DNA from: Escherichia coli
Lineage (GTDB): Bacteria; Pseudomonadota; Gammaproteobacteria; Enterobacterales; Enterobacteriaceae
Assembly: GCF_002854065.1 (NCBI RefSeq)
Contig: NZ_CP024147.1
Length of the DNA: 64,000 nt
Reading direction: 5' to 3' (one strand)
Of the stretch, positions 17,608 through 39,517 are shown piece by piece. Every line of letters begins with the position of its first letter. Position 1 is the stretch's first letter. A program made the translations under genes and the position numbers. Below the pieces are notes generated by a model. It did no database searches. It was not told the DNA's origin and saw nothing but the letters and a program-made list of their open reading frames with translations.

Positions 17608-17624
17608 TAGCACCTCCTGAGCAG

Positions 17625-17665
17625 GCAATGGCCACCGTTTATCTAACAGTGGCCATTTGATTTGA
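17625..17665 (+). terminator. Hairpin downstream of yhhT (possible terminator) at the edge of the AT-rich junction
   Basis: aatggccac...gtggccatt inverted repeat followed by tttgattt. Confidence 0.4.
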
Positions 17666-17986
17666 GGAAATGATGAAACATTATTCAGAAAATTAATTTA
17701 AAAAAACCATTCCTTAAGTCAAATATATATAAACGCCGAATAGCGATTAAATCCTTCTCAAAGAATGCACTGATAACATTGTGTTATTTTTATTGCCTCA
17801 TTTTTCTCACTCACTTATAGTTGGTCCCTGCTGGCAGTAATTTAGTCATTTCAGAGATTTTTACTCTGATGTGCACTTACTGACTTATCTCACAAGTAAT
17901 TTTTTCTCTAAATAAAGAATAGTGATGCCAGCAATTACAGTTAAATCTTGCTTTACTCGTAAAAACAATACTTTAATGGGGTTCTA

Positions 17987-18376
17987 ATGAGACATTACAT
18001 GAAGTGGTTTGCGGCTATTGCTGTTGTGGGTGCTTTAGCAGGTTGCGCGCGTACTGCGCCAATTGATCAGGTTCACTCAACCGTCAGCGCTGGTCATACC
18101 CAGGAACAAGTGAAAAAAGCGATTCTGAAAGCTGGCGTTGAACGCAAATGGATTATGTCCGAAGCCGGACAAGGCATAATTAAAGCACGTCAACAGTCAC
18201 GCGATCATTCAGCGGAAATACGCATTAACTACACGGCATCCAGCTACGATATCAATTATGAAAATAGCCAGAACCTACAAGCGTCAGGCGGACAAATTCA
18301 TAAAAACTACAATCGCTGGGTCCGCAATCTCGACAAAGATATTCAACTGAATTTGTCAGCGGGCGCAGATTTATAA
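17987..18376 (+). CDS. Putative lipoprotein of unknown function; first ORF of the accessory insert
   Basis: 129-aa ORF with signal peptide and lipobox (VGALAGC); preceded by GGGG RBS; alternative start 12 nt downstream (MKWFAA...). Confidence 0.5.
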   Translation: MRHYMKWFAAIAVVGALAGCARTAPIDQVHSTVSAGHTQEQVKKAILKAGVERKWIMSEAGQGIIKARQQSRDHSAEIRINYTASSYDINYENSQNLQASGGQIHKNYNRWVRNLDKDIQLNLSAGADL

Positions 18377-18435
18377 TTCTTCCTAAAGTCGGGCCGTTGC
18401 GGTCCGATAATAATTTAATTCCCTCTTAACAGGTT

Positions 18436-19503
18436 GTGCCCAACATGTACGAACAGGATTCTCTTAGCGCACTGGATGCGATTACCGAAGCTCAACGCAT
18501 TGCCTTTGCCCCTATGCTTTTTCAAACAGCACTCTGCCTACGTAATGCGGGTGTACTTTCATATCTGGATCGGCAAGGCAAACATGGCGCAACGCTGGCT
18601 GATATCACCGAACATAGCCATATCAACGAATATGCTGCCAGCGTTCTGTTAGATATGGGCTTAAGCGGGCGAATTATTACCTGTAAAGAGGGAATTTATT
18701 ACCTGGCGAAAATCGGTCATTACCTCCTGCATGACACTATGACTCGCGTGAATATGGATTTCACCCAGGATGTCTGTTACCAGGGGCTCTTCTTCCTCGC
18801 CGATTCACTCAATGAAGGAAAACCTTCCGGGTTAAAAGTATTTGGCGACTGGTCGACGATATATCCGGCACTTTCGCAATTACCAGACGCCGCTCGTGAA
18901 AGCTGGTTTGCGTTTGATCATTACTATTCAGATGGCGCATTTAACGCCGTACTGCCTTATGTATTCGCCAACAACCCCACAACATTGTACGATGTAGGCG
19001 GCAATACGGGTAAGTGGGCTTTGCGTTGCTGCAAATACAATGAAAACATCGCCGTGACGTTATTAGATCTGCCACAACAAATCGTACTAGCGAAAGAAAA
19101 TATCGCGAATGCAGGTTTTTCTGATCGCATAGATTTCCATGCGGTGGATATGCTAAGCGATGCCCCATTACCGGGCGAGGCTGATATCTGGTGGATGAGC
19201 CAATTTTTAGACTGTTTTTCACCCGAACAAATAATTAGCATACTCAGCAAAATTGCCAGCGTAATGAAGCCTGGCGCAAAAGTTTGCATCATGGAGTTGT
19301 TCTGGGATGCGCAGCGGTTTGAAGCAGCATCGTTTAGCCTGAACGCGTCCTCACTTTATTTTACCTGCATGGCAAACGGTAACAGCCGTTTCTATAGTGC
19401 AGAGAAATTTTACGACTATCTGAATAAAGCAGGATTCCAGGTAGCAGAGCGCCACGATAATTTAGGCGTTGGGCATACACTTTTGATATGCCAAAAGAAA
19501 TAA
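18436..19503 (+). CDS. apeB: SAM-dependent O-methyltransferase (class I), ApeB-like
   Basis: 355-aa ORF with SAM-binding motif YDVGGNTG and LLDLP; track start appears to be GTG, ATG 9 nt downstream (MYEQDSL...). Confidence 0.75.
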   Translation: MPNMYEQDSLSALDAITEAQRIAFAPMLFQTALCLRNAGVLSYLDRQGKHGATLADITEHSHINEYAASVLLDMGLSGRIITCKEGIYYLAKIGHYLLHDTMTRVNMDFTQDVCYQGLFFLADSLNEGKPSGLKVFGDWSTIYPALSQLPDAARESWFAFDHYYSDGAFNAVLPYVFANNPTTLYDVGGNTGKWALRCCKYNENIAVTLLDLPQQIVLAKENIANAGFSDRIDFHAVDMLSDAPLPGEADIWWMSQFLDCFSPEQIISILSKIASVMKPGAKVCIMELFWDAQRFEAASFSLNASSLYFTCMANGNSRFYSAEKFYDYLNKAGFQVAERHDNLGVGHTLLICQKK

Positions 19504-19543
19504 TCGTCACTTAATAATTTTGGTTTACCGCGGGCGCGCGTTG

Positions 19544-20266
19544 ATGAAATTTACATTAAATATTACCGACTGGCAGGCACTGGCGCCTGGACTTAGCGAA
19601 GCGCAGCAATGGCAAGCATGGTCGCGCCAGCCGTGGGCGATTGACCCTGCCGCGCCGTTGGCAAAATTAAGTGAACTGCCAATGATGACCGCCCGCCGCC
19701 TCAGTTCAGGCAGCAAACTGGCTGTTGAATGCGGTCTGGCAATGCTACGCCGCCATCAGCCAGACGCCGTTTTGTATACCAGTCGTCATGGCGAACTGGA
19801 GCGCAATTACCGCATTGTTCATGCACTGGCAACCGAACAGGCGCTTTCTCCGACGGACTTCGCGCTCTCCGTACACAACTCTTCCGTGGGTAACCTGACC
19901 ATTGCGGCCAAACAGCCGATCGTTTCGTCATCGCTTTCGGCTGGTCGCGACACTTTCCAGCAAGGTTTGTGTGAAGTGCTTAGTCTGTTACAGGCGGGCT
20001 ACCAGCGCGTGTTGATGGTCGATTTTGATGGCTTTCTGCCTGAGTTCTATCATCCACAACTGCCCGCAGAAATGCCGACCTGGCCGTACGCCGTCGCGCT
20101 GGTGATTGAAGCTGGCGATGAGTGGCAATGTGGAACGCAGTCAGCCATTGCGGGTAATGAAACAACACTGCCGCAAAGCATGTTGTTTTTACAGCACTAT
20201 TTACAAAATGCGGACACATTTTCACTGCCTGGCGAGCGCGTACAGTGGCGCTGGAGCCGTGGATGA
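19544..20266 (+). CDS. apeC: Ketosynthase-like chain-length-factor protein (KS-beta without active-site Cys), ApeC-like
   Basis: ORF 19520..20266 trimmed to ATG (MKFTLNITDWQ...); KS-like N-terminal fold but SSSLSAG where KS carries the catalytic Cys. Confidence 0.65.
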   Translation: MKFTLNITDWQALAPGLSEAQQWQAWSRQPWAIDPAAPLAKLSELPMMTARRLSSGSKLAVECGLAMLRRHQPDAVLYTSRHGELERNYRIVHALATEQALSPTDFALSVHNSSVGNLTIAAKQPIVSSSLSAGRDTFQQGLCEVLSLLQAGYQRVLMVDFDGFLPEFYHPQLPAEMPTWPYAVALVIEAGDEWQCGTQSAIAGNETTLPQSMLFLQHYLQNADTFSLPGERVQWRWSRG

Positions 20267-21084
20267 GTAAGCTGCTGTCACGTCTGGAGTGGACCTGGCG
20301 ACTGGTCATGACCGGGTTATGTTTTGCCCTGTTTGGTCTCGGCGGCCTGCTGCTTTCTGTCGTGTGGTTTAACATATTGTTAGTTTTGGTGTGGGATACT
20401 TCCCGCCGCCGTCGTTTGGCGCGTCGCAGCATTGCCGCCAGTTTTCGCCTGTTTTTAACTGTCGCGAAAGGGCTTGGCGTGCTGGATTATCGTATTGATG
20501 GCGCTGAAATTTTACGTCAGGAACGCGGTTGCCTCGTCGTAGCCAATCATCCCACGCTGATCGATTACGTGCTGCTGGCGTCAGTCATGCCAGAAACTGA
20601 CTGCCTGGTGAAAAGCGCGCTGTTAAAAAATCCTTTTCTTGGCGGCGTCGTGCGGGCGGCAGATTATTTAATCAACAGCGAAGCTGAAACCCTGTTACCC
20701 CGCTGCCAACAGCGACTGGCACAGGGTGACACTATCCTGATTTTCCCCGAAGGCACGCGAACGAAGCCCGGTGAAAAAATGACGCTGCAGCGCGGGGCGG
20801 CGAATATTGCCGTGCGCTGTGCCAGCGATTTACGCATCGTGACGATCGGCTGTAGCGAGCATCTGCTGGATAAACAAAGTAAATGGTATGACGTTCCACC
20901 TGACCGGCCGTTTTTTACGGTTGCAGTCCATGGTCGGGTTGAAATCAATAAATTTTACGATGCAACTTCACAAGAACCGGCGCTGGCAGCAAGGCAGTTA
21001 AACCGGCATCTTTTGCTTCAATTACAACAAGGTTGTTTACCTCTCTCAGGAATAAATAATGCAAGCGCTTTATCTGGAAATTAA
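20263..21084 (+). CDS. apeD: Lysophospholipid/1-acylglycerol-3-phosphate acyltransferase family protein, ApeD-like
   Basis: HX4D motif (NHPTLIDY), FPEGTR motif, N-terminal TM helix; ATG overlaps upstream stop (ATGA). Confidence 0.8.
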   Translation: MSKLLSRLEWTWRLVMTGLCFALFGLGGLLLSVVWFNILLVLVWDTSRRRRLARRSIAASFRLFLTVAKGLGVLDYRIDGAEILRQERGCLVVANHPTLIDYVLLASVMPETDCLVKSALLKNPFLGGVVRAADYLINSEAETLLPRCQQRLAQGDTILIFPEGTRTKPGEKMTLQRGAANIAVRCASDLRIVTIGCSEHLLDKQSKWYDVPPDRPFFTVAVHGRVEINKFYDATSQEPALAARQLNRHLLLQLQQGCLPLSGINNASALSGN

Positions 21085-21316
21085 AAACCTCATCATCAGC
21101 ACCCTCAATCTGGACGAGTTGACGCCTGATGATATCGATACCGACGCGCCGCTGTTTGGCGACGGTTTAGGGCTGGACTCTATCGATGCCCTGGAACTGG
21201 GACTGGCAGTAAAAAATGAGTACGGCATCGTGCTCTCTGCGGAAAGCGAAGAGATGCGTCAGCACTTTTTCTCCGTCGCCACTCTGGCCTCTTTCATTGC
21301 TGCGCAACGTGCCTGA
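21059..21316 (+). CDS. apeE: Acyl carrier protein 1, ApeE-like
   Basis: 85 aa, phosphopantetheine attachment motif GLDSIDALEL. Confidence 0.85.
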   Translation: MQALYLEIKNLIISTLNLDELTPDDIDTDAPLFGDGLGLDSIDALELGLAVKNEYGIVLSAESEEMRQHFFSVATLASFIAAQRA

Positions 21317-21327
21317 GGAAAGCCATC

Positions 21328-21579
21328 ATGACAGAACAACAAACCGTCTATCAGGAAGTCTCAGCCCTGCTGGTTAAGCTGTTTGAAATCGATCCGCAGG
21401 ACATCAAACCTGAAGCGCGCCTGTACGAAGATCTGGAACTGGACAGCATCGACGCCGTTGACATGATTGTGCACCTGCAAAAGAAAACCGGTAAGAAAAT
21501 CAAGCCGGAAGAGTTTAAAGCAGTGCGTACAGTCCAGGATGTCGTCGAGGCTGTAGAACGCCTGCTACAAGAAGCCTGA
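21328..21579 (+). CDS. apeF: Acyl carrier protein 2, ApeF-like
   Basis: 83 aa, attachment motif LELDSIDAVDMI; GAGGAA RBS. Confidence 0.85.
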   Translation: MTEQQTVYQEVSALLVKLFEIDPQDIKPEARLYEDLELDSIDAVDMIVHLQKKTGKKIKPEEFKAVRTVQDVVEAVERLLQEA

Positions 21580-21583
21580 TCTG

Positions 21584-22165
21584 ATGTCGGGCATTCGCTC
21601 GCTACCGATGATTAAGCTGCTGACTGGATTATTGCTGCTCGCCTGGCCGTTTGTGATTTGGTTTGGCTTAGCGCATAACGGCCTGCACTGGCTGTTGCCG
21701 CTAATAGCGTTGCTGCTTTTGTTGCGCCTGCGCCAGACCCGTCGCCAGGCGGGGCCGCTCCAGGTCGTCACACAAATCGTCGCTGTCGTGGGCATCGCAT
21801 TATGTGTCGCCAGCGTTCTGTTGAAAACACACCAGCTACTGCTGTTTTACCCGGTAGTGGTTAACGCGGTCATGCTGGCGGTTTTTGGCGGTTCGCTGTG
21901 GTCGGCAATGCCGATAGTTGAGCGGCTGGCGCGTTTGCAGGAGCCAGATCTGCCGGAAAAGGGCATGCGCTATACCCGCCGCGTCACGCAAATCTGGTGC
22001 GGCTTTTTCATCATCAACGGTGGAATTGCCCTCTTTACCGCGCTTTATGCCGATATGTCGTTATGGACCGCCTGGAACGGCATGATTGCTTATTTGTTGA
22101 TGGGAACATTAATGGCTGGTGAATGGCTGGTGCGCCGTCAGGTGATGAAAAGAGATCGCGCATGA
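21584..22165 (+). CDS. apeG: Integral membrane protein of unknown function, ApeG-like
   Basis: 193 aa with ~5 hydrophobic helices; translationally coupled to neighbours. Confidence 0.6.
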   Translation: MSGIRSLPMIKLLTGLLLLAWPFVIWFGLAHNGLHWLLPLIALLLLLRLRQTRRQAGPLQVVTQIVAVVGIALCVASVLLKTHQLLLFYPVVVNAVMLAVFGGSLWSAMPIVERLARLQEPDLPEKGMRYTRRVTQIWCGFFIINGGIALFTALYADMSLWTAWNGMIAYLLMGTLMAGEWLVRRQVMKRDRA

Positions 22166-23523
22166 AGCAGACCTTACCGCTTGCACGCTGGCTGACTGCG
22201 CCACGCTCTGATGACACACCCATTGCGTGGCTGGACGAAAGCTTCTGGACGCTGGGCGATTTGCGTCACGATGTCGCGCAACTTATCTGCCGCTTGCAGC
22301 AACAGCCGGGTGAACGCTGGGCGCTGTGCTTTGAGAACAGCTATCTGTTTATCGTTGCCCTGCTCGCCACGCTACACGCCGGAAAAACGCCGGTGCTTCC
22401 GGGGCATAACCGTGTTATCCAGCTTAACGAGCAACGTGAACTTTTTGATGGTGTGCTTAGCGACAGCGAACTTAACTGGCAAGGTTCATTGCTGTTGGTA
22501 GCAAGTTCCCCACAAATCGCGACACAATCCTTCACCTTTGCCGCTATAGCGCCAGAGGCTTTTATCGAGCTGTTTACCTCCGGTTCCACGGGACAGCCGA
22601 AACGGGTGATTAAACCTGTTCATTTGCTGGATCGTGAAGCAGAACTGCTGGCTGAACGATTAGGCGCACGTCTGGCGGGTTGTCGTGTCGTCGGTTCCGT
22701 ATTGCCGCAGCATTTGTACGGCCTGACTTTTCGCGTTTTCCTGCCCATGGCGTTGGGATTACCGCTGCACGCCGCCATGCTCTGGTATGTCGAACAGTTT
22801 GCCGCGTTGAGTCATCAGCATCGCTATATCTTCATCAGCAGCCCGGCATTTTTGAAGCGCCTGGATACCCAGCTTTCTCCGCCACCCGTTCAGGTGCTTC
22901 TCTCTGCTGGCGGTGAGCTGCCGTGGCAGGATGTACAACACACCGCAAGCTGGCTGCGCGTCTGGCCTGATGAAATCTACGGCAGCACGGAAACCGGTGT
23001 CATCGCCTGGCGTTACCGCGAACAAGAGCAACGCCGCTGGCTACCCTTCCCTGGTATGCAGTTCCAGGCCGAAGGTGATTCTTTTCGTCTCTTTTCACCG
23101 CTGATGGCGGAAGATAACGGCCTGTTACTCGACGATCTCTTGCAGTTTAGCCAGGACGGTCAGTTCCATCTGATGGGGCGTCGTGGGCGCATCGTTAAGA
23201 TTGAAGAAAAACGTATTTCACTCCAGGAAGTAGAACAACGTCTGCTGGCGCTGGACGGTATTCGCGAGGCGGCGGCAGTTCCCGTTACGCGCGGCGGGCG
23301 TCAGAGCATAGGCGTTTTGCTGGTGCTGGATGACGAAGCTCATCTGCAATGGCAGAACGGCGGCGGGCATAGCCAGGAAATGACCTGGCGGCGTTTACTG
23401 CGCCCGACGCTGGAGCCAGTTGCTATTCCGCGTTACTGGCGCGTTATTGATGAAATGCCAGTAAACAGTATGAACAAGCGTGTCTATGCGCAATTACAGG
23501 AGTTATTTCATGAAGCCCCATGA
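22162..23523 (+). CDS. apeH: AMP-dependent synthetase/ligase (aryl/acyl adenylating enzyme), ApeH-like
   Basis: ORF 22123..23523 trimmed to ATG overlapping upstream stop (MKQTLPLARWL...); adenylation P-loop FTSGSTGQPKRV. Confidence 0.8.
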   Translation: MKQTLPLARWLTAPRSDDTPIAWLDESFWTLGDLRHDVAQLICRLQQQPGERWALCFENSYLFIVALLATLHAGKTPVLPGHNRVIQLNEQRELFDGVLSDSELNWQGSLLLVASSPQIATQSFTFAAIAPEAFIELFTSGSTGQPKRVIKPVHLLDREAELLAERLGARLAGCRVVGSVLPQHLYGLTFRVFLPMALGLPLHAAMLWYVEQFAALSHQHRYIFISSPAFLKRLDTQLSPPPVQVLLSAGGELPWQDVQHTASWLRVWPDEIYGSTETGVIAWRYREQEQRRWLPFPGMQFQAEGDSFRLFSPLMAEDNGLLLDDLLQFSQDGQFHLMGRRGRIVKIEEKRISLQEVEQRLLALDGIREAAAVPVTRGGRQSIGVLLVLDDEAHLQWQNGGGHSQEMTWRRLLRPTLEPVAIPRYWRVIDEMPVNSMNKRVYAQLQELFHEAP

Positions 23524-23863
23524 AATCGAGCGCCATCAGGCACAAACGAATCACCTTGAAATTGTTCTGCATCTCAGGGCGGATCTGTTCTGGTTTCGCG
23601 GTCATTTTGCCGTGCAACCATTACTCCCAGGAGTTGCGCAAATCGACTGGGCGATGAGCTACGCGCTCAATCTGCTCGCGCCTGGCTGGCGTTTTCACTC
23701 CATTCAGAACATAAAATTCCAGTCTCCGTTGCTGCCGGAAAACCGCGTCACGCTCGCGCTTAACTGGCAGGAAGAACGCCAGATTCTGAGCTTTAGCTAT
23801 CAGCGTCACGACGGTGACGCCCGCCACACCGCCAGTAGCGGGAAGATCCGCCTATGTCGGTAA
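23510..23863 (+). CDS. apeI: Hotdog-fold 3-hydroxyacyl-ACP dehydratase (FabA/FabZ-like), ApeI-like
   Basis: ~117 aa from MKPHEIERHQ...; hotdog-size protein in FAS-like context; start overlaps apeH end. Confidence 0.65.
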   Translation: MKPHEIERHQAQTNHLEIVLHLRADLFWFRGHFAVQPLLPGVAQIDWAMSYALNLLAPGWRFHSIQNIKFQSPLLPENRVTLALNWQEERQILSFSYQRHDGDARHTASSGKIRLCR

Positions 23864-25530
23864 ACTTTTCTCCCTGCGTGTTGATTCCCTGCTATAACCA
23901 CGGCGCGATGATGCCGGGCGTGCTGGCGCGTCTTAAGCCATTTAATCTCCCCTGTATTGTGGTGGACGACGGCAGCGATGCCGCCACGCAACAGCAACTG
24001 GATAATCTGGTTAGCGAACAGCCTGGCGTGACCTTAATTCGCTTAGCAGAAAACGCAGGTAAAGGCGCGGCAGTGATGCGTGGCTTACAGGCAGCGGCAG
24101 ACGCAGGGTTCAGCCATGCGGTGCAGGTGGATGCTGACGGTCAACATGCGATTGAAGATATCCCCAAACTGCTGGCACTCGCTGAACGACACCCTGCGGC
24201 GCTGATCTCCGGCCAGCCAATTTACGATGACTCCATCCCCCGCTCACGGCTTTACGGGCGCTGGGTCACCCACGTCTGGGTATGGATCGAAACGCTCTCC
24301 CTGCAACTGAAAGACAGCATGTGCGGCTTTCGCGTTTATCCGGTTGCGCCAACGCTGCAACTGGCAAAACACGCCACCATCGGCAAGCGGATGGATTTCG
24401 ACACTGAAGTGATGGTGCGCCTCTACTGGCAGGGAAACACCAGCTATTTCGTGCCGACCCGCGTCACCTATCCACTGGACGGGCTTTCGCATTTTGATGC
24501 CCTGAAAGATAACGTCCGCATCTCGCTCATGCACACGCGTCTGTTTTTCGGCATGTTACCGCGTATTCCTTCACTGCTGATGCGCCGCTCTTCCAGCCAC
24601 TGGGCGCGGCAGAGTGAAGTGAAAGGATTATGGGGAATGCGCCTGATGCTGCTGGTCTGGCGTCTGCTGGGAAGAACGGCGTTTAGCGCGCTGCTTTACC
24701 CGGTGGTGGGCGTCTACTGGCTCACTGCTTCTCGTGCGCGCAAAGCGTCGCAAGACTGGCTCGCCCGTGTACGACAGCATCAACCACAGGCGGCAAAACT
24801 CAACAGCTATCAGCACTTTCTACGTTTCGGTAATGCCATGCTCGACAAAATCGCCAGTTGGCGCGGCGAGCTGCAACTGGGGCGCGATGTGCTGTTTGCG
24901 CCAGGCGCAGAAGCGGCACTTAACGTCAGCGATCCGCGCGGCAAATTGCTGCTGGCCTCGCATCTTGGCGATGTGGAAGTGTGCCGGGCGCTGGCAAAAA
25001 TTCAGGGCTACAAAACCATTAACGCGCTGGTGTTTAGCGAAAACGCCCAACGCTTTAAACAGATAATGCAGGAGATGGCCCCGCAGGCCGGCATCAACCT
25101 GATGCCGGTAACGGATATCGGCCCGGAAACCGCCATCCTGCTCAAAGAGAAGCTGGATAACGGCGAATGGGTGGCGATTGTCGGTGACCGCATCGCCGTC
25201 AACCCGCAACGCGGCGGCGACTGGCGCGTCTGCTGGAGTCCGTTTATGGGCCAGCCTGCGCCCTTCCCACAGGGGCCGTTTATTCTCGCGTCTATTTTGC
25301 GCTGCCCGGTGAATCTGATTTTCGCCCTGCGCCAGCACGGCAAGCTGCATATTCACTGCGAAACCTTTGCCGACCCGCTGCTGTTGCCGCGTGGCGAACG
25401 CCAACAGGCGCTGCAAAACGCTATCGACCACTACGCCGCGCGTCTGGAACATTACGCGCTCCAGTCGCCCCTCGACTGGTTTAATTTTTTCGATTTCTGG
25501 CAACTGCCGGAAATTCAGGACAAGGAGTAA
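23854..25530 (+). CDS. apeJ: Two-domain protein: N-terminal family-2 glycosyltransferase fused to a C-terminal domain of unresolved (possibly acyltransferase-like) function, ApeJ-like
   Basis: 558 aa; GT-A signatures CYNHGAMMP, VVDDGSDA, QVDADGQH in the first ~230 aa; remainder has no motif I can assign. Confidence 0.75.
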   Translation: MSVNFSPCVLIPCYNHGAMMPGVLARLKPFNLPCIVVDDGSDAATQQQLDNLVSEQPGVTLIRLAENAGKGAAVMRGLQAAADAGFSHAVQVDADGQHAIEDIPKLLALAERHPAALISGQPIYDDSIPRSRLYGRWVTHVWVWIETLSLQLKDSMCGFRVYPVAPTLQLAKHATIGKRMDFDTEVMVRLYWQGNTSYFVPTRVTYPLDGLSHFDALKDNVRISLMHTRLFFGMLPRIPSLLMRRSSSHWARQSEVKGLWGMRLMLLVWRLLGRTAFSALLYPVVGVYWLTASRARKASQDWLARVRQHQPQAAKLNSYQHFLRFGNAMLDKIASWRGELQLGRDVLFAPGAEAALNVSDPRGKLLLASHLGDVEVCRALAKIQGYKTINALVFSENAQRFKQIMQEMAPQAGINLMPVTDIGPETAILLKEKLDNGEWVAIVGDRIAVNPQRGGDWRVCWSPFMGQPAPFPQGPFILASILRCPVNLIFALRQHGKLHIHCETFADPLLLPRGERQQALQNAIDHYAARLEHYALQSPLDWFNFFDFWQLPEIQDKE

Positions 25531-25533
25531 AGG

Positions 25534-25956
25534 GTGCTTAACGATCCCCGATTTACCGCTGAAGTCGAGCTGACCATTCCCTTTCACGACGTCGATATGA
25601 TGGGCGTGGCCTGGCACGGTAACTATTTTCGCTACTTTGAAGTGGCCCGCGAGGCGCTGCTCAACCAGTTCAATTACGGCTATCGGCAGATGAAAGAGTC
25701 CGGTTATTTGTGGCCAGTGGTCGATGCGCGGGTGAAATATCGCCACGCCCTCACCTTTGAGCAACGCATCCGCGTGCGTGCGCATATCGAAGAGTTCGAA
25801 AACCGTCTGCGGATTGGCTATCAGATTTTCGATGCCGAAACGGGCAAACGCGCCACCACCGGATACACCATTCAGGTCGCGGTCGACGAGCAAAGTCGCG
25901 AACTGTGCTTTGTCAGCCCCGATATTCTGTTTGAACGCATGGGAGTCAAACCATGA
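25534..25956 (+). CDS. apeK: 4HBT/YbgC-type hotdog acyl thioesterase, ApeK-like
   Basis: 140 aa; apparent GTG start after AAGGAG RBS; hotdog thioesterase-like N-terminus (FHDVDMMGVAWHGNYFRYFE). Confidence 0.7.
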   Translation: MLNDPRFTAEVELTIPFHDVDMMGVAWHGNYFRYFEVAREALLNQFNYGYRQMKESGYLWPVVDARVKYRHALTFEQRIRVRAHIEEFENRLRIGYQIFDAETGKRATTGYTIQVAVDEQSRELCFVSPDILFERMGVKP

Positions 25957-26558
25957 AATTTTTACCGCTACTGGCGCTGCTGATTAGCCCGTTTGTGAGC
26001 GCCCTGACCCTGGACGATCTTCAGCAACGCTTTACCGAACAATCGGTGATCCGCGCCCATTTCGATCAAACCCGGACGATTAAAGATCTGCCGCAGCCGC
26101 TGCGATCTCAGGGCCAGATGTTGATCGCCCGCGACCAGGGGCTGTTGTGGGATCAAACCTCACCGTTCCCCATGCAACTATTACTGGACGATAAACGCAT
26201 GGTGCAGGTGATCAACGGTCAGCCGCCGCAAATCATCACGGCAGAAAACAACCCGCAGATGTTTCAGTTTAACCACCTGCTGCGCGCGCTGTTCCAGGCC
26301 GATCGCAAAGTGCTGGAACAAAACTTCCGCGTCGAATTTACCGACAAAGGCGAAGGCCGCTGGACGCTGCGCCTGACCCCAACCACCACGCCGCTGGATA
26401 AAATTTTCAACACCATCGATCTCGCCGGGCAAACCTATCTGGAGAGCATTCAACTTAATGATAAACAGGGCGATCGCACCGATATTGCTCTTACCCAACA
26501 TCAACTGACGCCAGCGCAACTGACCGATGACGAACGCCAACGTTTTGCCGCCCAGTAA
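25953..26558 (+). CDS. apeL: LolA-like periplasmic lipid/lipoprotein carrier, ApeL-like
   Basis: 201 aa with signal peptide MKFLPLLALLISPFVSA; ATGA overlap with upstream gene. Confidence 0.65.
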   Translation: MKFLPLLALLISPFVSALTLDDLQQRFTEQSVIRAHFDQTRTIKDLPQPLRSQGQMLIARDQGLLWDQTSPFPMQLLLDDKRMVQVINGQPPQIITAENNPQMFQFNHLLRALFQADRKVLEQNFRVEFTDKGEGRWTLRLTPTTTPLDKIFNTIDLAGQTYLESIQLNDKQGDRTDIALTQHQLTPAQLTDDERQRFAAQ

Positions 26559-28845
26559 ACGCCCCGCGCTGTTATGGGGGCTAGTCTGCCTGGTCATGGC
26601 GGCGGCGTTGCTGATCCTGCTGCCGCAATCACGGCTGAACAGTAGCGTGCTGGCTATGTTACCCAAACAGGCGATGGGCGATATTCCCCCAGCGCTGAAT
26701 GACGGCTTTATGCAGCGTCTGGACCGCCAACTGGTGTGGCTGGTCAGCCCCGGTAAAGAGGCTAATCCCAGGGTGGCTCAGGAGTGGCTGACGCTGCTGC
26801 AAAAATCCGCTGCGCTCGGCGACGTTAAAGGGCCAATGGATGCCGCCAGCCAGCAAGCGTGGGGCGCGTTTTTCTGGCAGCACCGCAACGGCCTGATTGA
26901 CCCCGACACCCGCGCCCGCCTGCAAAACGGCGGCGAAGCGCAGGCGCAGTGGATCCTCTCCCAGCTTTATTCTGCATTCTCCGGGGTAAGCGGCAAGGAG
27001 CTGCAAAACGATCCGCTGATGTTAATGCGCGGCTCGCAGCTGGCGATGGCAAAAAATGGCCAGCGTTTGCGGCTGATGGACGGCTGGCTGGTGACGCAGG
27101 ATCCCCAGGGCAACTACTGGTATCTGCTGCACGGCGAACTGGCGGGATCGTCGTTTGATATGCAGCAAACCCACCAGCTCATCACGACCCTGAATACGCT
27201 GGAAAAGGATCTGAAAACGCGTTACCCACAGGCGCAGTTGCTCTCGCGCGGCACGGTATTTTACAGCGATTACGCCAGTCAACAGGCGAAGCAGGATATC
27301 TCAACCCTGGGCGTGGCAACGCTGCTGGGGGTGATATTACTGATTGTGGCGGTGTTCCGCTCTTTGCGCCCATTGTTGCTTTGCGTGATTTCCATCGGCA
27401 TCGGCGCGCTGGCGGGAACGGTCGCCACTTTATTGATTTTCGGTGAATTACACCTGATGACGCTGGTGATGAGCATGAGCGTTATCGGCATTTCCGCTGA
27501 CTACACGCTCTATTATCTCACCGAGCGGATGGTGCACGGCAACGACGTTTCGCCGTGGCAAAGCCTGGCGAAAGTACGCAATGCCCTGCTGCTGGCGCTG
27601 CTCACCACCGTGGCGGCATATCTGATTATGATGCTCGCCCCCTTCCCCGGCATTCGCCAGATGGCGATTTTTGCCGCCGTCGGGTTGAGCGCCTCCTGTC
27701 TGACCGTCCTGTTCTGGCATCCGTGGCTGTGCCGTGGCCTGCCGGTGCGTCCGGTTCCGGCGATGGCGCTGATGCTGCGCTGGCTGGCAGCGTGGCGGCG
27801 CAATAAAAAACTGTCGCTGGGTCTGCCCGTCGCGCTGGCGCTGTTTTCGCTGGCGGGGATGTCAATGCTGCGCGTCGATGACGATATCTCGCAGTTACAG
27901 GCGCTGCCGCAGCATATTCTGGCGCAGGAGAAAGCCATTACCGCCCTGACCGGACAAAGCGTCGATCAAAAATGGTTTGTGGTTTACGGCGATTCGCCAC
28001 AGCAAACATTGCGGCGACTGGAGAAATATACCGCCTCACTTGAGTATGCGAAAAAAGAGGGGCTTATCAGCAACTACCGCACCATTCCGCTGAACTCCCT
28101 TGCGCGGCAGGAGGAAGATTTACAACTGCTGAAAACGGCGGCCCCGACAGTAACAAAAGCGCTGCAAAATGCCGGGCTGACGGCAGTGAACCCGGATCTC
28201 AACGCCATGCCAGTGAACGTTGATGAATGGCTGGCAAGCCCTGCCAGTGAAGGCTGGCGTCTGCTGTGGCTGACGCTGGAAAACGGCGAAAGCGGCGTAC
28301 TGGTGCCGGTTGAAGGGGTTAAAAGTAGCGCGTTGATGCAGGAAATCGCCACATATTACCCTTGCGGCATTGCCTGGGTTGATCGCAAAAGCACCTTTGA
28401 TGAGTTGTTCGCGCTTTACCGTTATGTCTTAACCGGCTTGTTGCTGGTGGCGCTGGCGGTGATTGCCTGCGGCGCAGTGGCCCGTCTCGGCTGGCGCAAA
28501 GGGCTTATCAGCCTTGTACCTTCGGTGCTTTCGCTGGGTTGTGGTCTGGCGGTGCTGGCGATGAGCGGGCAGGCGGTGAATCTCTTTTCGCTGCTGGCGC
28601 TGGTGCTGGTGCTTGGCATCGGCATCAACTACACGCTGTTTTTCAGTAATCCGCGCGGCACACCATTAACTTCGCTACTGGCGATCACGCTGGCAATGCT
28701 CACCACCTTGCTGACGCTGGGAATGCTGATATTCAGCGCCACCCAGGCCATCAGCAGTTTTGGCATTGTGCTGGTGAGCGGTATTTTCACCGCCTTCCTG
28801 CTTTCGCCGCTGGCGATGCCCGATAAAAAGAGAACAAAAAAATGA
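26527..28845 (+). CDS. apeM: MMPL/RND-superfamily membrane exporter, ApeM-like
   Basis: 772 aa, two hydrophobic TM bundles separated by soluble domains; start ambiguous (ATG 26527 overlapping apeL, or in-frame start further down). Confidence 0.75.
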   Translation: MTNANVLPPSKRPALLWGLVCLVMAAALLILLPQSRLNSSVLAMLPKQAMGDIPPALNDGFMQRLDRQLVWLVSPGKEANPRVAQEWLTLLQKSAALGDVKGPMDAASQQAWGAFFWQHRNGLIDPDTRARLQNGGEAQAQWILSQLYSAFSGVSGKELQNDPLMLMRGSQLAMAKNGQRLRLMDGWLVTQDPQGNYWYLLHGELAGSSFDMQQTHQLITTLNTLEKDLKTRYPQAQLLSRGTVFYSDYASQQAKQDISTLGVATLLGVILLIVAVFRSLRPLLLCVISIGIGALAGTVATLLIFGELHLMTLVMSMSVIGISADYTLYYLTERMVHGNDVSPWQSLAKVRNALLLALLTTVAAYLIMMLAPFPGIRQMAIFAAVGLSASCLTVLFWHPWLCRGLPVRPVPAMALMLRWLAAWRRNKKLSLGLPVALALFSLAGMSMLRVDDDISQLQALPQHILAQEKAITALTGQSVDQKWFVVYGDSPQQTLRRLEKYTASLEYAKKEGLISNYRTIPLNSLARQEEDLQLLKTAAPTVTKALQNAGLTAVNPDLNAMPVNVDEWLASPASEGWRLLWLTLENGESGVLVPVEGVKSSALMQEIATYYPCGIAWVDRKSTFDELFALYRYVLTGLLLVALAVIACGAVARLGWRKGLISLVPSVLSLGCGLAVLAMSGQAVNLFSLLALVLVLGIGINYTLFFSNPRGTPLTSLLAITLAMLTTLLTLGMLIFSATQAISSFGIVLVSGIFTAFLLSPLAMPDKKRTKK

Positions 28846-29426
28846 TCAAATCCACATTCTGGCGAGCGTTCGCCCTGACCGCTACGCTTATCCTCACCGG
28901 CTGTAGCCACTCGCAACCAGAACAGGAAGGCCGCCCGCAGGCGTGGCTGCAACCTGGCACGCGCATCACGCTGCCGGCACCAGGGATTTCACCCGCAGTC
29001 AATTCGCAGCAACTGTTGACCGGCAGCTTCAACGGCAAAACCCAGTCGCTGTTAGTGATGCTTAACGCCGACGATCAGAAAATCACCCTTGCCGGGCTGT
29101 CGTCGGTCGGCATTCGCCTGTTTCTGGTGACCTACGATGCGCAAGGGCTACGCGCCGAGCAATCCATCGTCGTCCCACAGTTACCGCCCGCAAGTCAGGT
29201 ACTGGCTGACGTGATGCTCAGCCACTGGCCGATTAGCGCCTGGCAACCGCAACTTCCCGCAGGATGGACACTTCGCGACAACGGTGACAAACGCGAGCTG
29301 CGTAACGCCAGCGGCAAACTGGTCACGGAAATCACCTATCTGAATCGCAAGGGCAAACGCGTGCCAATCAGCATTGAGCAGCATGTCTTTAAATACCACA
29401 TCACCATTCAATACTTAGGTGACTGA
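28842..29426 (+). CDS. apeN: Lipoprotein of unknown function, ApeN-like
   Basis: 194 aa, signal peptide plus lipobox LTGC; ATGA overlap with apeM stop. Confidence 0.6.
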   Translation: MIKSTFWRAFALTATLILTGCSHSQPEQEGRPQAWLQPGTRITLPAPGISPAVNSQQLLTGSFNGKTQSLLVMLNADDQKITLAGLSSVGIRLFLVTYDAQGLRAEQSIVVPQLPPASQVLADVMLSHWPISAWQPQLPAGWTLRDNGDKRELRNASGKLVTEITYLNRKGKRVPISIEQHVFKYHITIQYLGD

Positions 29427-29427
29427 T

Positions 29428-30597
29428 ATGATTTATATTTCCGCCGTCGGCATGATCAACGCCCTGGGAAATAACCTTGACGAAATCGCAACCAACCTGA
29501 CTCGCGGTGTTGCTCCCGGCATGCGCCCGCGCGCAGGCTGGTTGCAGGGGCATCCGCAGGCGGTCCTGGCTGGCGTGGATGGCGAGCTTCCGCTTATCCC
29601 GGAAAAATTCGCTGCGCACCGCTCGCGCAACAATCAGATCCTGCTGGCGGCGCTGGCGCAGATCCAGCCGCAGGTTGATGACGCTATCGCGAAATATGGT
29701 CGCGAGCGCATCGCGATTGTACTTGGCACCAGCACCTCCGGCCTGCATGAAGGCGACACGCACGTTAACCTGCGCACCCACGGGCAGCCGAGCACCACAT
29801 GGCACTACGCGCAACAGGAACTCGGCGATCCGTCGCGTTTTCTCAGCCACTGGCTGGCGCTCGACGGCCCGGCCTATACCCTTTCAACCGCCTGCTCTTC
29901 CAGCGCCAGAGCGATAATCAGCGGGCGCAGGCTTATCGAAGCGGGGCTGGTCGATGCCGCCATTGTGGGTGGCGCAGACACCCTGAGCCGGATGCCGATT
30001 AACGGTTTTCACAGCCTCGAATCGCTGTCGCCAACCTTATGTCAGCCGTTTGGTCGTGACCGCGCAGGTATCACCATTGGTGAAGGGGCGGGGCTAATGC
30101 TGCTGACCCGGGAACCGCAGCCCATCGCGTTGCTGGGCGTTGGTGAATCGAGCGACGCTTACCATATTTCGGCCCCGCATCCGCAGGGCGAAGGGGCGAT
30201 CCGCGCCATTAATCAGGCACTGACCGATGCGCAGCTTACGCCAGATGACGTCGGCTATATCAACCTGCACGGCACCGCCACGCAACTCAACGACCAGATT
30301 GAATCGATGGTGCTTAACGCCCTGTTTGGCGAACGCGTACCGTGCAGCTCCACCAAACATTTGACCGGCCACACGCTGGGCGCGGCGGGCATTACCGAAG
30401 CAGCAATCAGTATGTTGATCTTACAGCGTGATTTACCGCTGCCCGCCCAAGATTTCAGCCTGTCGCCACGCGATCCCACGCTGCCACCCTGCGGCATTAT
30501 CGAAAAACCGCAGCCGCTGGCTCGTCCGGTGATCCTGTCCAATTCCTTCGCCTTTGGCGGCAATAACGCCAGCATTCTGCTCGGGAGGGTTTCGTGA
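29428..30597 (+). CDS. apeO: Beta-ketoacyl-ACP synthase (KAS I/II-like), ApeO-like
   Basis: ORF 29419..30597 trimmed to ATG after AGGTGA RBS; catalytic Cys (LSTACSSSA), His (NLHGTAT), GHTLGAAG. Confidence 0.85.
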   Translation: MIYISAVGMINALGNNLDEIATNLTRGVAPGMRPRAGWLQGHPQAVLAGVDGELPLIPEKFAAHRSRNNQILLAALAQIQPQVDDAIAKYGRERIAIVLGTSTSGLHEGDTHVNLRTHGQPSTTWHYAQQELGDPSRFLSHWLALDGPAYTLSTACSSSARAIISGRRLIEAGLVDAAIVGGADTLSRMPINGFHSLESLSPTLCQPFGRDRAGITIGEGAGLMLLTREPQPIALLGVGESSDAYHISAPHPQGEGAIRAINQALTDAQLTPDDVGYINLHGTATQLNDQIESMVLNALFGERVPCSSTKHLTGHTLGAAGITEAAISMLILQRDLPLPAQDFSLSPRDPTLPPCGIIEKPQPLARPVILSNSFAFGGNNASILLGRVS

Positions 30598-31058
30598 GCC
30601 ACTATTTATCCCCCGGCGCTTATCTGCCCCACGACGCGCCCATGTTACTGCTGGAAGACGTGGTGAGCGTCAGCGATGACAGCGCGGTGTGCCGCGTGAC
30701 GGTTTCGCCCAGTGGCGTACTGGCACCGTTTCTCGACCCGGACGGCAATCTCCCCGGCTGGTTTGCCCTTGAACTGATGGCGCAAACCGTCGGCGTCTGG
30801 TCTGGCTGGCATCGCCACCAGCAGGGCAAAAACAGTATTGAGTTAGGGATGATACTGGGCGCGCGTGAATTGCTTTGCGCCGCTGGCATTCTGCCCGCAG
30901 GCCAGACGCTGACCATTACCGTCAAACTGCTGATGCAGGACGATCGCTTCGGCAGTTTTGAGTGCAGCATCAACGACGGCGAGGCGACGGGCCGCATTAA
31001 CACCTTCCAGCCGACCGCGGAAGAACTTACCACCCTGTTTCAACAAGGAGCGTCCTGA
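30594..31058 (+). CDS. apeP: Hotdog-fold dehydratase, ApeP-like
   Basis: 154 aa; apparent GTG start after GGGAGGG RBS, overlapping apeO stop. Confidence 0.65.
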   Translation: MSHYLSPGAYLPHDAPMLLLEDVVSVSDDSAVCRVTVSPSGVLAPFLDPDGNLPGWFALELMAQTVGVWSGWHRHQQGKNSIELGMILGARELLCAAGILPAGQTLTITVKLLMQDDRFGSFECSINDGEATGRINTFQPTAEELTTLFQQGAS

Positions 31059-31789
31059 TGAGTCGTTCAGTTCTGGTTACTGGTGCCAGCAAAGGCATTG
31101 GTCGCGCCATCGCCTGCCAACTGGCGGCAGACGGCTTTAACATTGGCGTTCACTATCACCGTGACGCCACAGGCGCTCAGGAAACGCTGAATGCCATTGT
31201 CGCCAACGGGGGTAACGGGCGTTTGCTCAGTTTCGACGTCGCAAACCGCGAACAGTGTCGGGAAGTGCTGGAGCATGAGATCGCGCAACACGGTGCCTGG
31301 TACGGCGTGGTCAGTAACGCCGGGATCGCCCGCGATGCCGCTTTTCCGGCTTTAAGCGATGACGACTGGGATGCGGTGATCCACACCAACCTCGACAGTT
31401 TCTACAACGTCATTCAGCCGTGCATTATGCCAATGATCGGCGCGCGCCAGGGTGGGCGCATCATCACGCTGTCCTCGGTTTCCGGCGTAATGGGCAATCG
31501 CGGCCAGGTGAATTACAGCGCAGCCAAAGCCGGAATTATCGGCGCAACTAAAGCGCTGGCTATCGAACTCGCGAAGCGCAAAATCACCGTCAACTGCATC
31601 GCGCCGGGGCTTATTGATACCGGGATGATCGAAATGGAAGAGAGCGCTCTGAAAGAGGCAATGTCGATGATCCCCATGAAACGTATGGGCCAGGCGGAAG
31701 AAGTTGCCGGGCTTGCCAGTTATTTAATGTCTGATATTGCGGGTTACGTCACCCGCCAGGTTATTTCCATCAACGGAGGGATGTTATGA
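31058..31789 (+). CDS. apeQ: SDR-family 3-oxoacyl-ACP reductase (FabG-like), ApeQ-like
   Basis: 243 aa; TGASKGIGRAI cofactor motif, catalytic YSAAKAG. Confidence 0.9.
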   Translation: MSRSVLVTGASKGIGRAIACQLAADGFNIGVHYHRDATGAQETLNAIVANGGNGRLLSFDVANREQCREVLEHEIAQHGAWYGVVSNAGIARDAAFPALSDDDWDAVIHTNLDSFYNVIQPCIMPMIGARQGGRIITLSSVSGVMGNRGQVNYSAAKAGIIGATKALAIELAKRKITVNCIAPGLIDTGMIEMEESALKEAMSMIPMKRMGQAEEVAGLASYLMSDIAGYVTRQVISINGGML

Positions 31790-33015
31790 CACGTCGCGTA
31801 GTGATTACAGGAATGGGCGGCGTGACTGCCTTTGGTGAAAACTGGCAGGACGTTTCTGCACGCTTACTGGCGTATGAAAATGCGGTGCGCAAAATGCCGG
31901 AGTGGCAGGTCTACGATGGCCTGCACACCCTGCTTGGCGCGCCTGTTGATGATTTCACGCTACCGGAGCACTATACCCGCAAGCGTATCCGTGCGATGGG
32001 CCGCGTATCGCAAATGTCGACCCGTGCCAGCGAGCTGGCGTTAGAGCAGGCAGGGTTGATTGGCGATCCGATATTAACCAGCGGCGAAACGGGCATTGCG
32101 TACGGTTCATCGACCGGCAGTACCGGCCCGGTAAGCGAGTTCGCCACCATGCTGACGGAAAAGCACACCAATAACATCACTGGCACCACCTATGTGCAGA
32201 TGATGCCGCACACCACCGCCGTTAATACTGGCCTCTTTTTCGGCCTGCGCGGGCGGGTGATCCCAACCTCCAGCGCCTGTACTTCCGGCAGCCAGGCAAT
32301 CGGTTATGCGTGGGAAGCCATTCGCCACGGTTATCAAACGGTGATGGTTGCTGGTGGTGCCGAAGAGTTATGTCCTTCAGAAGCAGCGGTATTTGATACG
32401 CTTTTCGCCACCAGCCAGCACAATGATGCGCCGAAAACCACACCTTCACCGTTCGATGAAAACCGCGACGGGCTGGTGATTGGTGAAGGCGCAGGTACGC
32501 TCATTCTCGAAGAACTGGAGCACGCCAAAGCGCGCGGCGCGACCATTTACGGTGAAATCGTCGGCTTTGCGACTAACTGCGACGCGGCACATATTACCCA
32601 GCCGCAGCGCGAAACCATGCAGTATTGTATGGAGCAATCGCTGAAAATCGCCGGGTTAAGCGCACAAGATATCGGCTATATTTCAGCGCATGGTACGGCG
32701 ACCGATCGCGGTGATATGGCAGAAAGTCTGGCGACAGCAACCATTTACGGTGATAATGTGCCGCTCTCCTCGCTGAAAAGTTATTTTGGTCATACGCTTG
32801 GTGCCTGTGGCGCGCTCGAAGCCTGGATGAGTCTGCAAATGATGCGCGAAGGTTGGTTTGCGCCTACGCTAAACCTGAATAAACCAGACCCGAATTGTGG
32901 CGCGCTGGATTACATCATGCATGAAGCCCGCAAGGTTGATTGTGAGTTTTTGCAGAGTAACAACTTTGCCTTTGGCGGCATTAATACATCCATCATCATT
33001 AAACGTTGGCCCTGA
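31786..33015 (+). CDS. apeR: Beta-ketoacyl-ACP synthase II-like, ApeR-like
   Basis: 409 aa; MTRRVVITGMGG N-terminus, catalytic Cys (SSACTSGS), His (SAHGTAT), GHTLGACG. Confidence 0.9.
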   Translation: MTRRVVITGMGGVTAFGENWQDVSARLLAYENAVRKMPEWQVYDGLHTLLGAPVDDFTLPEHYTRKRIRAMGRVSQMSTRASELALEQAGLIGDPILTSGETGIAYGSSTGSTGPVSEFATMLTEKHTNNITGTTYVQMMPHTTAVNTGLFFGLRGRVIPTSSACTSGSQAIGYAWEAIRHGYQTVMVAGGAEELCPSEAAVFDTLFATSQHNDAPKTTPSPFDENRDGLVIGEGAGTLILEELEHAKARGATIYGEIVGFATNCDAAHITQPQRETMQYCMEQSLKIAGLSAQDIGYISAHGTATDRGDMAESLATATIYGDNVPLSSLKSYFGHTLGACGALEAWMSLQMMREGWFAPTLNLNKPDPNCGALDYIMHEARKVDCEFLQSNNFAFGGINTSIIIKRWP

Positions 33016-33016
33016 T

Positions 33017-33604
33017 ATGTATCGGATAGTTCTGGGGAAAGTTTCGACCTTAAGCGCAGCTCCACTGCCACCGGGTTTACGCGAGCAAGCACCGCAAGGT
33101 CCACGACGCGAACGCTGGCTGGCGGGGCGTGCATTGCTTTCGCACACGCTTTCCCCGCTACCGGAGATCATCTATGGCGAACAAGGCAAACCTGCATTCG
33201 CGCCGGAAACGCCGCTATGGTTCAACTTAAGCCATAGCGGTGACGATATCGCCCTGCTGTTGAGTGATGAAGGCGAAGTCGGCTGCGATATCGAAGTGAT
33301 TCGCCCGCGCGCCAACTGGCGCTGGCTGGCGAACGCCGTGTTCAGCCTCGGGGAACACGCTGAAATGGACGCCGTGCATCCTGATCAGCAACTGGAAATG
33401 TTCTGGCGCATCTGGACGCGCAAAGAAGCCATCGTTAAACAGCGTGGCGGCAGCGCCTGGCAAATCGTCAGCGTAGACAGCACCTATCACTCCTCGCTGT
33501 CAGTCAGCCATTGTCAGCTAGAAAATTTAAGCCTTGCGATCTGCACCCCCACCCCCTTTACGCTCACCGCCGACAGTGTGCAATGGATCGATTCAGTTAA
33601 CTGA
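33017..33604 (+). CDS. acpT: 4'-phosphopantetheinyl transferase AcpT
   Basis: ORF 32897..33604 trimmed to MYRIVLGKVSTLSAAPLPPGL... (195 aa); starts ~1 bp after apeR stop. Confidence 0.9.
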   Translation: MYRIVLGKVSTLSAAPLPPGLREQAPQGPRRERWLAGRALLSHTLSPLPEIIYGEQGKPAFAPETPLWFNLSHSGDDIALLLSDEGEVGCDIEVIRPRANWRWLANAVFSLGEHAEMDAVHPDQQLEMFWRIWTRKEAIVKQRGGSAWQIVSVDSTYHSSLSVSHCQLENLSLAICTPTPFTLTADSVQWIDSVN

Positions 33605-33649
33605 TCCCGCCCACCCGACTGCCCATCTATTGATCCAGAACAGGTAATC

Positions 33650-33679
33650 AGTATGACGAATACTTAAAATCGTCATACT
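33650..33679 (+). promoter_or_regulatory. NikR operator in the nikA promoter
   Basis: GTATGA-N16-TCATAC dyad ~40 nt upstream of nikA ATG; a possible FNR half-site (TTGATccagAACAG) lies just upstream. Confidence 0.8.
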
Positions 33680-33715
33680 TATTTCCGCCATCTATTTTAA
33701 TCCATTGGGGTTACC

Positions 33716-39157: not shown

Positions 39158-39517
39158 TTATAAATGATTCAAACGCTCATTCAGTGTTTCAATAATATAG
39201 GTATTAACAGAGACTTGTTGCTGCGCAGCCGCATTATTAAGGCGTTCACTCAGCGATTCTGGATAGCGTAACGTAAAGGTCTTAATCTTTTCTGTACGCG
39301 CATACGGCTCAATACCCGCAGCTTTACAATCCTCAAGATACTCTCGCAGAGAAAGTTCCCCTTCTTTTTGCAGCCCCTGAATGCTGTCAGAGACAAAATC
39401 ACAATAACCTGACAAGCCCAGGAATTTGCCACGAAATGCATTCAGTTCTGGCACGTAAGTGATAACAGCAGGTTGCCCGGCAATCTCCATAGAGTTTGGC
39501 GTCTTCAGTTTGATCAT
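39158..39517 (-). CDS. HicB-family antitoxin (HicB-like N-domain + C-terminal ribbon-helix-helix)
   Basis: 119 aa; central FRGKFLGLSGYCDFVSDSIQGL...EPYARTEKIKTFTLRYPESL and C-terminal LSERLNNAAAQQQVSVNTYIIETLNERL fit the HicB pattern; overlaps toxin gene by 4 nt. Confidence 0.65.
   Translation of the reverse strand: MIKLKTPNSMEIAGQPAVITYVPELNAFRGKFLGLSGYCDFVSDSIQGLQKEGELSLREYLEDCKAAGIEPYARTEKIKTFTLRYPESLSERLNNAAAQQQVSVNTYIIETLNERLNHL

Follow-up and report, generated by a model that had tools for sequence, protein, structure and literature searches.

What occupies the roughly 15 kb between yhhT and acpT in some Escherichia coli genomes, and was that DNA gained by the strains that carry it or lost by those that do not? 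We addressed this question in a 64,000-nucleotide stretch of contig NZ_CP024147.1 (hereafter, the window), from a human stool isolate from The Gambia. The interval holds an aryl polyene (APE) operon that is real and intact, and that has been described previously in the literature rather than being new. We consider it very likely to be the E. coli operon for biosynthesis and export of APE lipid, a yellow compound bound to the membrane, standing at its ancestral site and equivalent to O-island 138 (OI-138) of O157:H7. Our analysis covered gene content, intactness, homology, synteny, evolutionary history, the fold of ApeJ and the linkage to acpT, and it is from the homology and synteny that we infer an APE product for this strain.

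Gene annotation was taken from RefSeq for the chromosome of E. coli strain 100416 (NZ_CM128593.1), which is 100% identical to the window. Eighteen co-directional coding sequences, apeA to apeR, are annotated between yhhT (16558-17607) and acpT (33017-33604), and none of the 18 translations contains an internal stop. Their order is the same as in the APE_Ec cluster of strain CFT073 (c1186-c1204; Cimermancic 2014; Johnston 2021, PMC8253772), running from A to R against c1204-c1186. CFT073 APE_Ec is a proven producer: its 18 genes (15.5 kb) are enough to pigment K-12, and a deletion phenotype was obtained for every gene (Johnston 2021, PMC8253772). In addition, ApeO, ApeC, ApeI and ApeP find their best matches in the solved structures 6QSP and 6QSR. 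A first-pass annotation, made from the sequence of the window, had recognized APE content and order in the interval, and this was borne out. The comparison with characterized clusters that it proposed (CFT073, Xenorhabdus) supports the assignment, and neither outcome that it named as contradictory (best matches to housekeeping fab genes without APE synteny, or continuity with a different annotated pathway) arose.

The closest relative with a name is OI-138 of O157:H7 strain EDL933 (Z4850 onward), which has the same locus (yhhT-island-acpT-nikA), the same 18 genes and the same apeH-apeI allele. Across the entire 15.4 kb the two are 98.1% identical in nucleotide sequence, with 100% coverage and the flanks within a single alignment, and differ by about 2% divergence and by host, which for OI-138 is an enterohemorrhagic E. 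coli (EHEC). The location beside acpT suggested at first pass is thus the insertion point of OI-138, and O157:H7, O55:H7 and O145 genomes all have the island at the yhhT-acpT locus, 98.1% identical to that of the window.

Gene content and layout of the operon

The features of the interval are as follows, with positions given in the window.

16558-17607 (+), yhhT: AI-2E family transporter, the conserved left flank; homology to empty-site genomes stops at 17603
17604-32996 (+), island DNA missing from K-12/CFT073-type yhhT-acpT sites: 15,393 bp, with a 38-bp filler there instead
17627-17657 (+), putative terminator-like element after yhhT: hairpin with 13-nt arms, then TTTGATTT
17658-17986 (+), non-coding leader: AT-rich (about 42% GC), presumed site of the operon promoter, unconserved between genera
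17987-18376 (+), apeA: small lipoprotein, lipobox LAGC, 65% identical to CFT073 ApeA
18445-19503 (+), apeB: S-adenosylmethionine methyltransferase for the aryl head group (role from the literature); PF00891 plus dimerization domain, FlxJ-like
19544-20266 (+), apeC: chain-length factor, a ketosynthase (KS) N-terminal-type domain alone, lacking the catalytic Cys; 6QSP_B, E 1.4e-92
20263-21084 (+), apeD: LPLAT/PlsC-type acyltransferase; HPTLID = HX4D (by eye)
21059-21316 (+), apeE: carrier protein 1, GLDSID; NF006617, 90.8 bits against a cutoff of 70
21328-21579 (+), apeF: carrier protein 2, ELDSID; NF003757, 146 bits against a cutoff of 65
21584-22165 (+), apeG: COG4648 membrane protein; 3' part in a CFT073-divergent block (81% amino acid identity)
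22162-23523 (+), apeH: predicted adenylate-forming aryl-ACP synthetase (starter loading), 66% identical to CFT073 ApeH
23510-23863 (+), apeI: hotdog dehydratase subunit; 6QSR_A; 72% identical to CFT073 ApeI; sharp right-hand edge of the divergent block at 23799
23854-25530 (+), apeJ: GT2 glycosyltransferase (residues 8-131) fused to a modeled PatA/LpxM-fold acyltransferase (about 235-558); invariant HLGDVE
25534-25956 (+), apeK: YbgC/FadM-type hotdog thioesterase, 100% identical to CFT073 ApeK
25953-26558 (+), apeL: LolA-like periplasmic carrier with a signal peptide
26527-28845 (+), apeM: MMPL/RND (HAE3/HpnN-like) lipid exporter
28842-29426 (+), apeN: DUF3261 lipoprotein, lipobox LTGC, LolB-like
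29428-30597 (+), apeO: elongating ketosynthase, partner of ApeC; 6QSP_A, E 5.6e-175
30594-31058 (+), apeP: hotdog dehydratase subunit, partner of ApeI; 6QSR_B
31058-31789 (+), apeQ: FabG2-type ketoreductase; TIGR01831, 476 bits against a cutoff of 339
31786-33015 (+), apeR: FabB/F-like ketosynthase; last 19 nt persist in empty-site genomes
33017-33604 (+), acpT: Sfp-type phosphopantetheinyl transferase (PPTase); NF007676, 396 bits; starts 1 nt past the apeR stop

Among the 17 internal junctions, 11 are overlaps of 1 to 32 nt and four are gaps of 1 to 11 nt; the two widest are those of apeA/apeB (68 nt) and apeB/apeC (40 nt). The 17 co-directional, mostly overlapping reading frames counted at first pass (apeB-apeR) were therefore correct in direction and overlap and one gene short, having overlooked the small lipoprotein gene apeA (17987/17999-18376). 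The end then given to the cluster, 33604, also takes in acpT, which is core E. coli DNA, so that the island proper is 17604-32996.

Protein functions and folds

Every function that the first-pass annotation had listed was verified by family and structure searches. ApeO and ApeR have the Cys/His/His motifs of ketosynthases, read by eye in an alignment; in ApeR they are ACTSG, HGTAT and GHTLG (by eye), and this protein scores 778 bits with NF006587 (cutoff 470). ApeC, at 240 aa, has the KS N-terminal-type PF13723 as its sole domain, with 'SLSAG' replacing the 'STACS' of ApeO (by eye). The top solved-structure matches fall on partner chains, with ApeO and ApeC matching chains A and B of 6QSP, the ApeO:ApeC complex of Xenorhabdus doucetiae, and ApeI and ApeP matching chains A and B of 6QSR. 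Both ApeE and ApeF contain the DSID serine motif and exceed the curated NCBIfam cutoffs. The remaining complement consists of a heterodimeric hotdog dehydratase pair (ApeI, ApeP) with the FabG2 ketoreductase ApeQ, lipid-attachment proteins (the LPLAT protein ApeD and the GT2-acyltransferase ApeJ) with the thioesterase ApeK, and an export set formed by MMPL (ApeM), LolA-like (ApeL), DUF3261 (ApeN) and COG4648 (ApeG) proteins. ApeG, a membrane protein, had gone unnamed at first pass.

Two assignments are more qualified. ApeH has the AMP-binding fold and all core motifs conserved, at 66% identity to CFT073 ApeH, and its substrate specificity is a prediction. ApeB had been called an O-methyltransferase; it is a PF00891-type methyltransferase, but the 'O-' comes from the name of the Pfam family, and known APE products are C-methylated on the ring (4-hydroxy-3-methylphenyl).

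The C-terminal 320 residues of ApeJ gave no match in Pfam or Protein Data Bank (PDB) sequence searches. We modeled this half by AlphaFold from 37 orthologs (pLDDT 77, pTM 0.79) and searched the model with Foldseek, which matched it to the mycobacterial phosphatidylinositol mannoside (PIM) acyltransferase PatA and the lipid A acyltransferase LpxM (E about 1e-9, probability 1.0). The region also contains an invariant HLGDVE (HX4E) motif, and it models as a PatA/LpxM-type acyltransferase fold. Such a fold fits a published scheme in which ApeJ acts twice, first as a glycosyltransferase and then by acylating the sugar with the polyene, at the 6-OH of N-acetylgalactosamine (GalNAc). In Superficieibacter sp. 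1612_C1 (L010 12383-13369), the C-terminal region of apeJ contains an in-frame stop, which could mark a pseudogene or a sequencing error.

The empty site in other E. coli is a deletion

We scanned one genome per species with an ApeH profile, which yielded 80 loci, and then searched these by tblastn with the window proteins. In about 43 species, spread over many genera, apeR is followed at a distance of no more than about 12 nt by the start of an AcpT homolog; at least 15 other enterobacterial species have yhhT ahead of apeA, separated from it by about 280-570 nt. Loci with the same yhhT and acpT flanks, gene order and orthologs occur in Citrobacter, Superficieibacter, Enterobacter, Kosakonia, Leclercia and others; protein identity to the window is 74-93% for Citrobacter amalonaticus (L006) and 81-94% for most proteins of other Citrobacter loci.

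E. coli genomes with an empty site, including a K-12-like isolate and CFT073, align to the window through 17603 and resume at 32997, so that 15,393 bp (17604-32996) are replaced by 38 bp. The empty sites retain the last 19 nt of apeR (…ATTAAACGTTGGCCCTGA), and this 3' end of the gene is conserved in sequence and reading frame in Citrobacter, Superficieibacter, Raoultella and others. The filler, ATGAGGCGACAAGTGATACGATACGCACTTTCATTTTC, lies at 2706-2743 of the K-12-like locus (L002) and at about 11566-11603 of the CFT073 locus (L003). The two copies are nearly identical (one single-nucleotide difference), which suggests a single old deletion allele behind the filler. Its origin was sought within the window, where it had no significant match; the island copy of CFT073 was not searched. 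At the borders of the island, we found no integrase, insertion sequence, tRNA or flanking repeat of the kind expected of a mobile island.

Because the synteny extends across genera, a remnant of apeR persists at empty sites and mobility genes and repeats are missing, the sequence comparison indicates that yhhT-ape-acpT is the ancestral arrangement and that the common E. coli state is a deletion. The first-pass annotation had placed yhhT and acpT side by side in K-12, and the K-12-like isolate has only the 38-bp filler in the island's place; its description of the cluster as 'inserted' between yhhT and acpT is the reverse of this history. By the same linkage, acpT is in effect gene 19 of the ape operon. 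Across 5,426 complete E. coli genomes, island DNA was found in 840, and in 576 of the 840 it is at the yhhT-acpT locus.

Some of the loci in other genera lack apeB, or both apeA and apeB, and judged by gene content apeB-less clusters should make products with unmethylated head groups. A tblastn match to apeB at a coverage of at least 50% was not found at the otherwise complete loci L020, L024, L025, L029, L031 and L045 (Raoultella/relatives), nor at L027, L033, L034 and L080. The last of these, from Enterobacter cloacae, is without apeA and apeB, and its yhhT is 129 nt from apeC. In E. coli strain CFIAFB20190167 (L086 4000-4098), a 99-bp remnant of the apeR 3' end is annotated as a 'beta-ketoacyl-ACP synthase IV' pseudogene; it sits within an island, with iha and a second btuB nearby, and is a vestige of an island-type ape cluster.

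The CFT073 cluster has another location and mosaic alleles

In CFT073, the ape cluster is elsewhere, at 1.144-1.159 Mb, in an integrase-bearing island by dgcT that is flanked by decayed hemagglutinin and garD genes. We take this island to be PAI-CFT073-serX. Nissle 1917 has the same arrangement. The yhhT-acpT site of CFT073 is empty and the island copy of the cluster has no adjacent PPTase; the orphan acpT remaining there probably works in trans for the island-borne cluster, and probably does so too for cosmid-borne clusters in K-12 hosts. On the CFT073 chromosome (NC_004431.1), the ape cluster and acpT are about 2.9 Mb apart (1.15 Mb versus 4.05 Mb).

Fourteen of the proteins are 94-100% identical between the window and CFT073 (for example, ApeK 100%, ApeR 99.8% and ApeO 99.5%), and four are diverged: ApeA (65%), ApeG (81%), ApeH (66%) and ApeI (72%). 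At the nucleotide level, identity to the CFT073 cluster (L005, 1143727-1158748) is 96-100% over most of the length and falls to 58-76% in two stretches. One lies upstream of about 18650 and covers the leader, apeA and the first 200 nt of apeB; the other extends from about 21650/22000 to 23799 and covers the apeG 3' end, apeH and apeI. Upstream of the genes, the regulatory DNA of the CFT073 cluster is unrelated to that of the window. The transitions between near-identical and diverged stretches are sharp (about 18650 and about 23800), a mosaic pattern that points to recombination, or to gene conversion, between two lineages of long standing. Each ApeH allele shares about 72-75% identity with Citrobacter proteins, and the two share 66% with each other, which makes them as old as the split between genera. 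For the same reason, the outgroup comparison did not settle which apeH allele should be named 'native'. The window-type apeH allele occurs in 567 genomes and the CFT073-type in 259; each tracked its own locus in all genomes whose context was examined, and the genome counts are roughly consistent with this. Isolate H76, a candidate for a CFT073-type allele at yhhT-acpT, was ruled out, as it carries an island-type copy with an 18-bp insertion.

This pattern bears on the best-surviving alternative to the APE lipid assignment, namely that the machinery is the same but an OI-138-type cluster yields a chemically different polyene, with another aryl starter, chain length or methylation. The divergence is concentrated in ApeH, ApeI, ApeA and, to a lesser degree, ApeG, is bounded by sharp breakpoints and is tied to location, and ApeH is the protein that loads the starter. 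However, the ANL core motifs and many further residues are invariant across the two E. coli alleles and 11 other enterobacterial ApeH proteins, and of the Ape proteins ApeH varies most between genera, so its low identity need not signal a new specificity. A substrate change between the ApeH alleles is unlikely on both grounds. Chain length is set by the KS/chain-length-factor pair, whose members are 99.5% and 94.6% identical between the two versions, and for ApeB the figure is 94%. We accordingly regard a different polyene as improbable. The broader form of this idea, in which two deeply diverged, location-tied cassettes (apeG'-apeH-apeI and apeA) make the lipid of the ancestral operon chemically or functionally unlike that of CFT073, seems to us equally doubtful. 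If it were true, the difference would lie in the aryl starter or in an export or host-interface interaction, and would imply diversifying selection on a surface lipid.

The start of the operon and its expression

For apeA, we favor a start at 17987 (129 aa) over the RefSeq start at 17999, as it lines up with the starts of homologs and with a GGAG-type Shine-Dalgarno (SD) sequence in the upstream regions of 15 species. ApeA itself matched no Pfam or NCBIfam family. A conserved regulatory motif upstream of apeA was not found in the same 15 species, in which the SD/start region alone aligns. Promoter and terminator predictions across 17400-33800 were no more numerous than expected from shuffled sequence, leaving the operon promoter unassignable; the sole sigma-70-like match near apeA (17793-17821) is no better than chance. 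An Rfam scan of the whole window returned no match.

The failure to find a convincing promoter in 17400-33800 would suit a second alternative, in which the operon looks intact but is a silent relic in this strain, on course for the loss that most E. coli have undergone. The cluster is gone from about 85% of complete E. coli genomes, and APE clusters, which have no regulator gene, are silent or weakly expressed in culture. On the other side, all 18 reading frames and acpT are intact with translational coupling kept, and more than 570 genomes keep the island at 96-99% identity. Moreover, OI-138 transcripts are detected and regulated in O157:H7 transcriptomes, where the genes are RpoS-responsive and contact with epithelial cells induces them. 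Given this conservation and expression, we rate a silent relic as a shade less probable still than a different polyene.

Proposed pathway and its support

Starting from the work on the CFT073 and X. doucetiae clusters, the following pathway can be proposed for the window operon. AcpT would bring the carrier proteins ApeE and ApeF into the holo form; in the account given by Johnston 2021 (PMC8253772), De Lay & Cronan 2006 showed AcpT to modify two O157 carrier proteins, homologs of ApeE/F. ApeH would adenylate 4-hydroxybenzoate supplied by UbiC and load it directly onto ApeE. The chain would then be elongated with malonyl units by ApeR and the ApeO:ApeC ketosynthase/chain-length-factor pair, with each beta-keto group reduced by ApeQ and dehydrated by the ApeI:ApeP heterodimer to give a conjugated hexaene, and the ring would be C-methylated by ApeB. 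ApeK, ApeD and the bifunctional ApeJ may release the polyene and join it to lipid through a sugar-phosphate-glycerol scaffold, and ApeG, ApeM, ApeL, ApeN and possibly ApeA may carry the product to the outer membrane, where the APE lipid would quench reactive oxygen and promote biofilm.

Several points weigh against this assignment. Such clusters, as noted, are silent or weak under laboratory conditions, and the product of those of the OI-138 type, like expression in this strain, is a prediction. The same product is assumed for ApeH and ApeI proteins that are only 66% and 72% identical to their characterized CFT073 counterparts. The lipid anchor has been established for Xenorhabdus alone (bioRxiv 10.1101/2020.12.19.423268), and what ApeA, ApeG, ApeL and ApeN do is a matter of conjecture in the literature. 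The X. doucetiae cluster (Grammbitter 2019; bioRxiv 10.1101/2020.12.19.423268), from which the mechanism and final lipid structure are drawn, has the same gene set; it belongs to a different genus, its product includes dimethylated head groups and our direct sequence comparison with it covered the four crystallized proteins.

Flexirubin and xanthomonadin clusters share with the window operon the type II polyketide synthase logic of aryl polyenes and LolA/MMPL-type export, and give weak cross-matches to family models. An identity as one of these, or as a paralogous housekeeping-type fatty-acid synthase, is refuted for practical purposes: of the weak matches to FabF, FabZ and FabG models and to FlxJ, FlxB and LolA2_flexi, those to FabF and FabZ and all the flexirubin ones fall short of family cutoffs (fabF TIGR03150, 212/353 versus 494; fabZ, 22-25 versus 155; FlxJ, 473 versus 560; FlxB, 266 versus 340; LolA2, 57 versus 125), none of the hallmark genes (DarA/DarB dialkylresorcinol, halogenase, tyrosine ammonia-lyase) is annotated in the cluster, and the synteny with CFT073 apeA-R is exact.

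Other accessory DNA in the window

Three further intervals of the window hold accessory DNA. A hicA/hicB toxin-antitoxin pair (39158-39789, minus strand) lies between yhhJ and nikR, where CFT073 has a GntR/PTS/aldolase sugar cluster. Two tandem genes with DUF4049 domains, encoding about 530-540 aa each (45151-48624, minus strand), lie between yhiY and yhiM and are not in that interval of CFT073. Beside gorA, 61777-64000 (minus strand) contains a DEAD/DEAH helicase, an overlapping hypothetical gene and truncated XRE/HTH regulator fragments, where CFT073 has dinQ/arsC.

Implications

The CFT073 cluster that serves as the reference for E. coli is a second, island-borne copy with the other starter-loading allele, and results obtained with it need checking before they are transferred to EHEC-type strains. 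An ape operon that, together with acpT, was ancestral to the Enterobacteriaceae and has been deleted from most E. coli would explain the 'orphan' AcpT of K-12. APE lipids shield Gram-negative bacteria from oxidative killing and aid biofilm formation, and carriage of an intact cluster may thus have some relevance to the fitness of pathogens.

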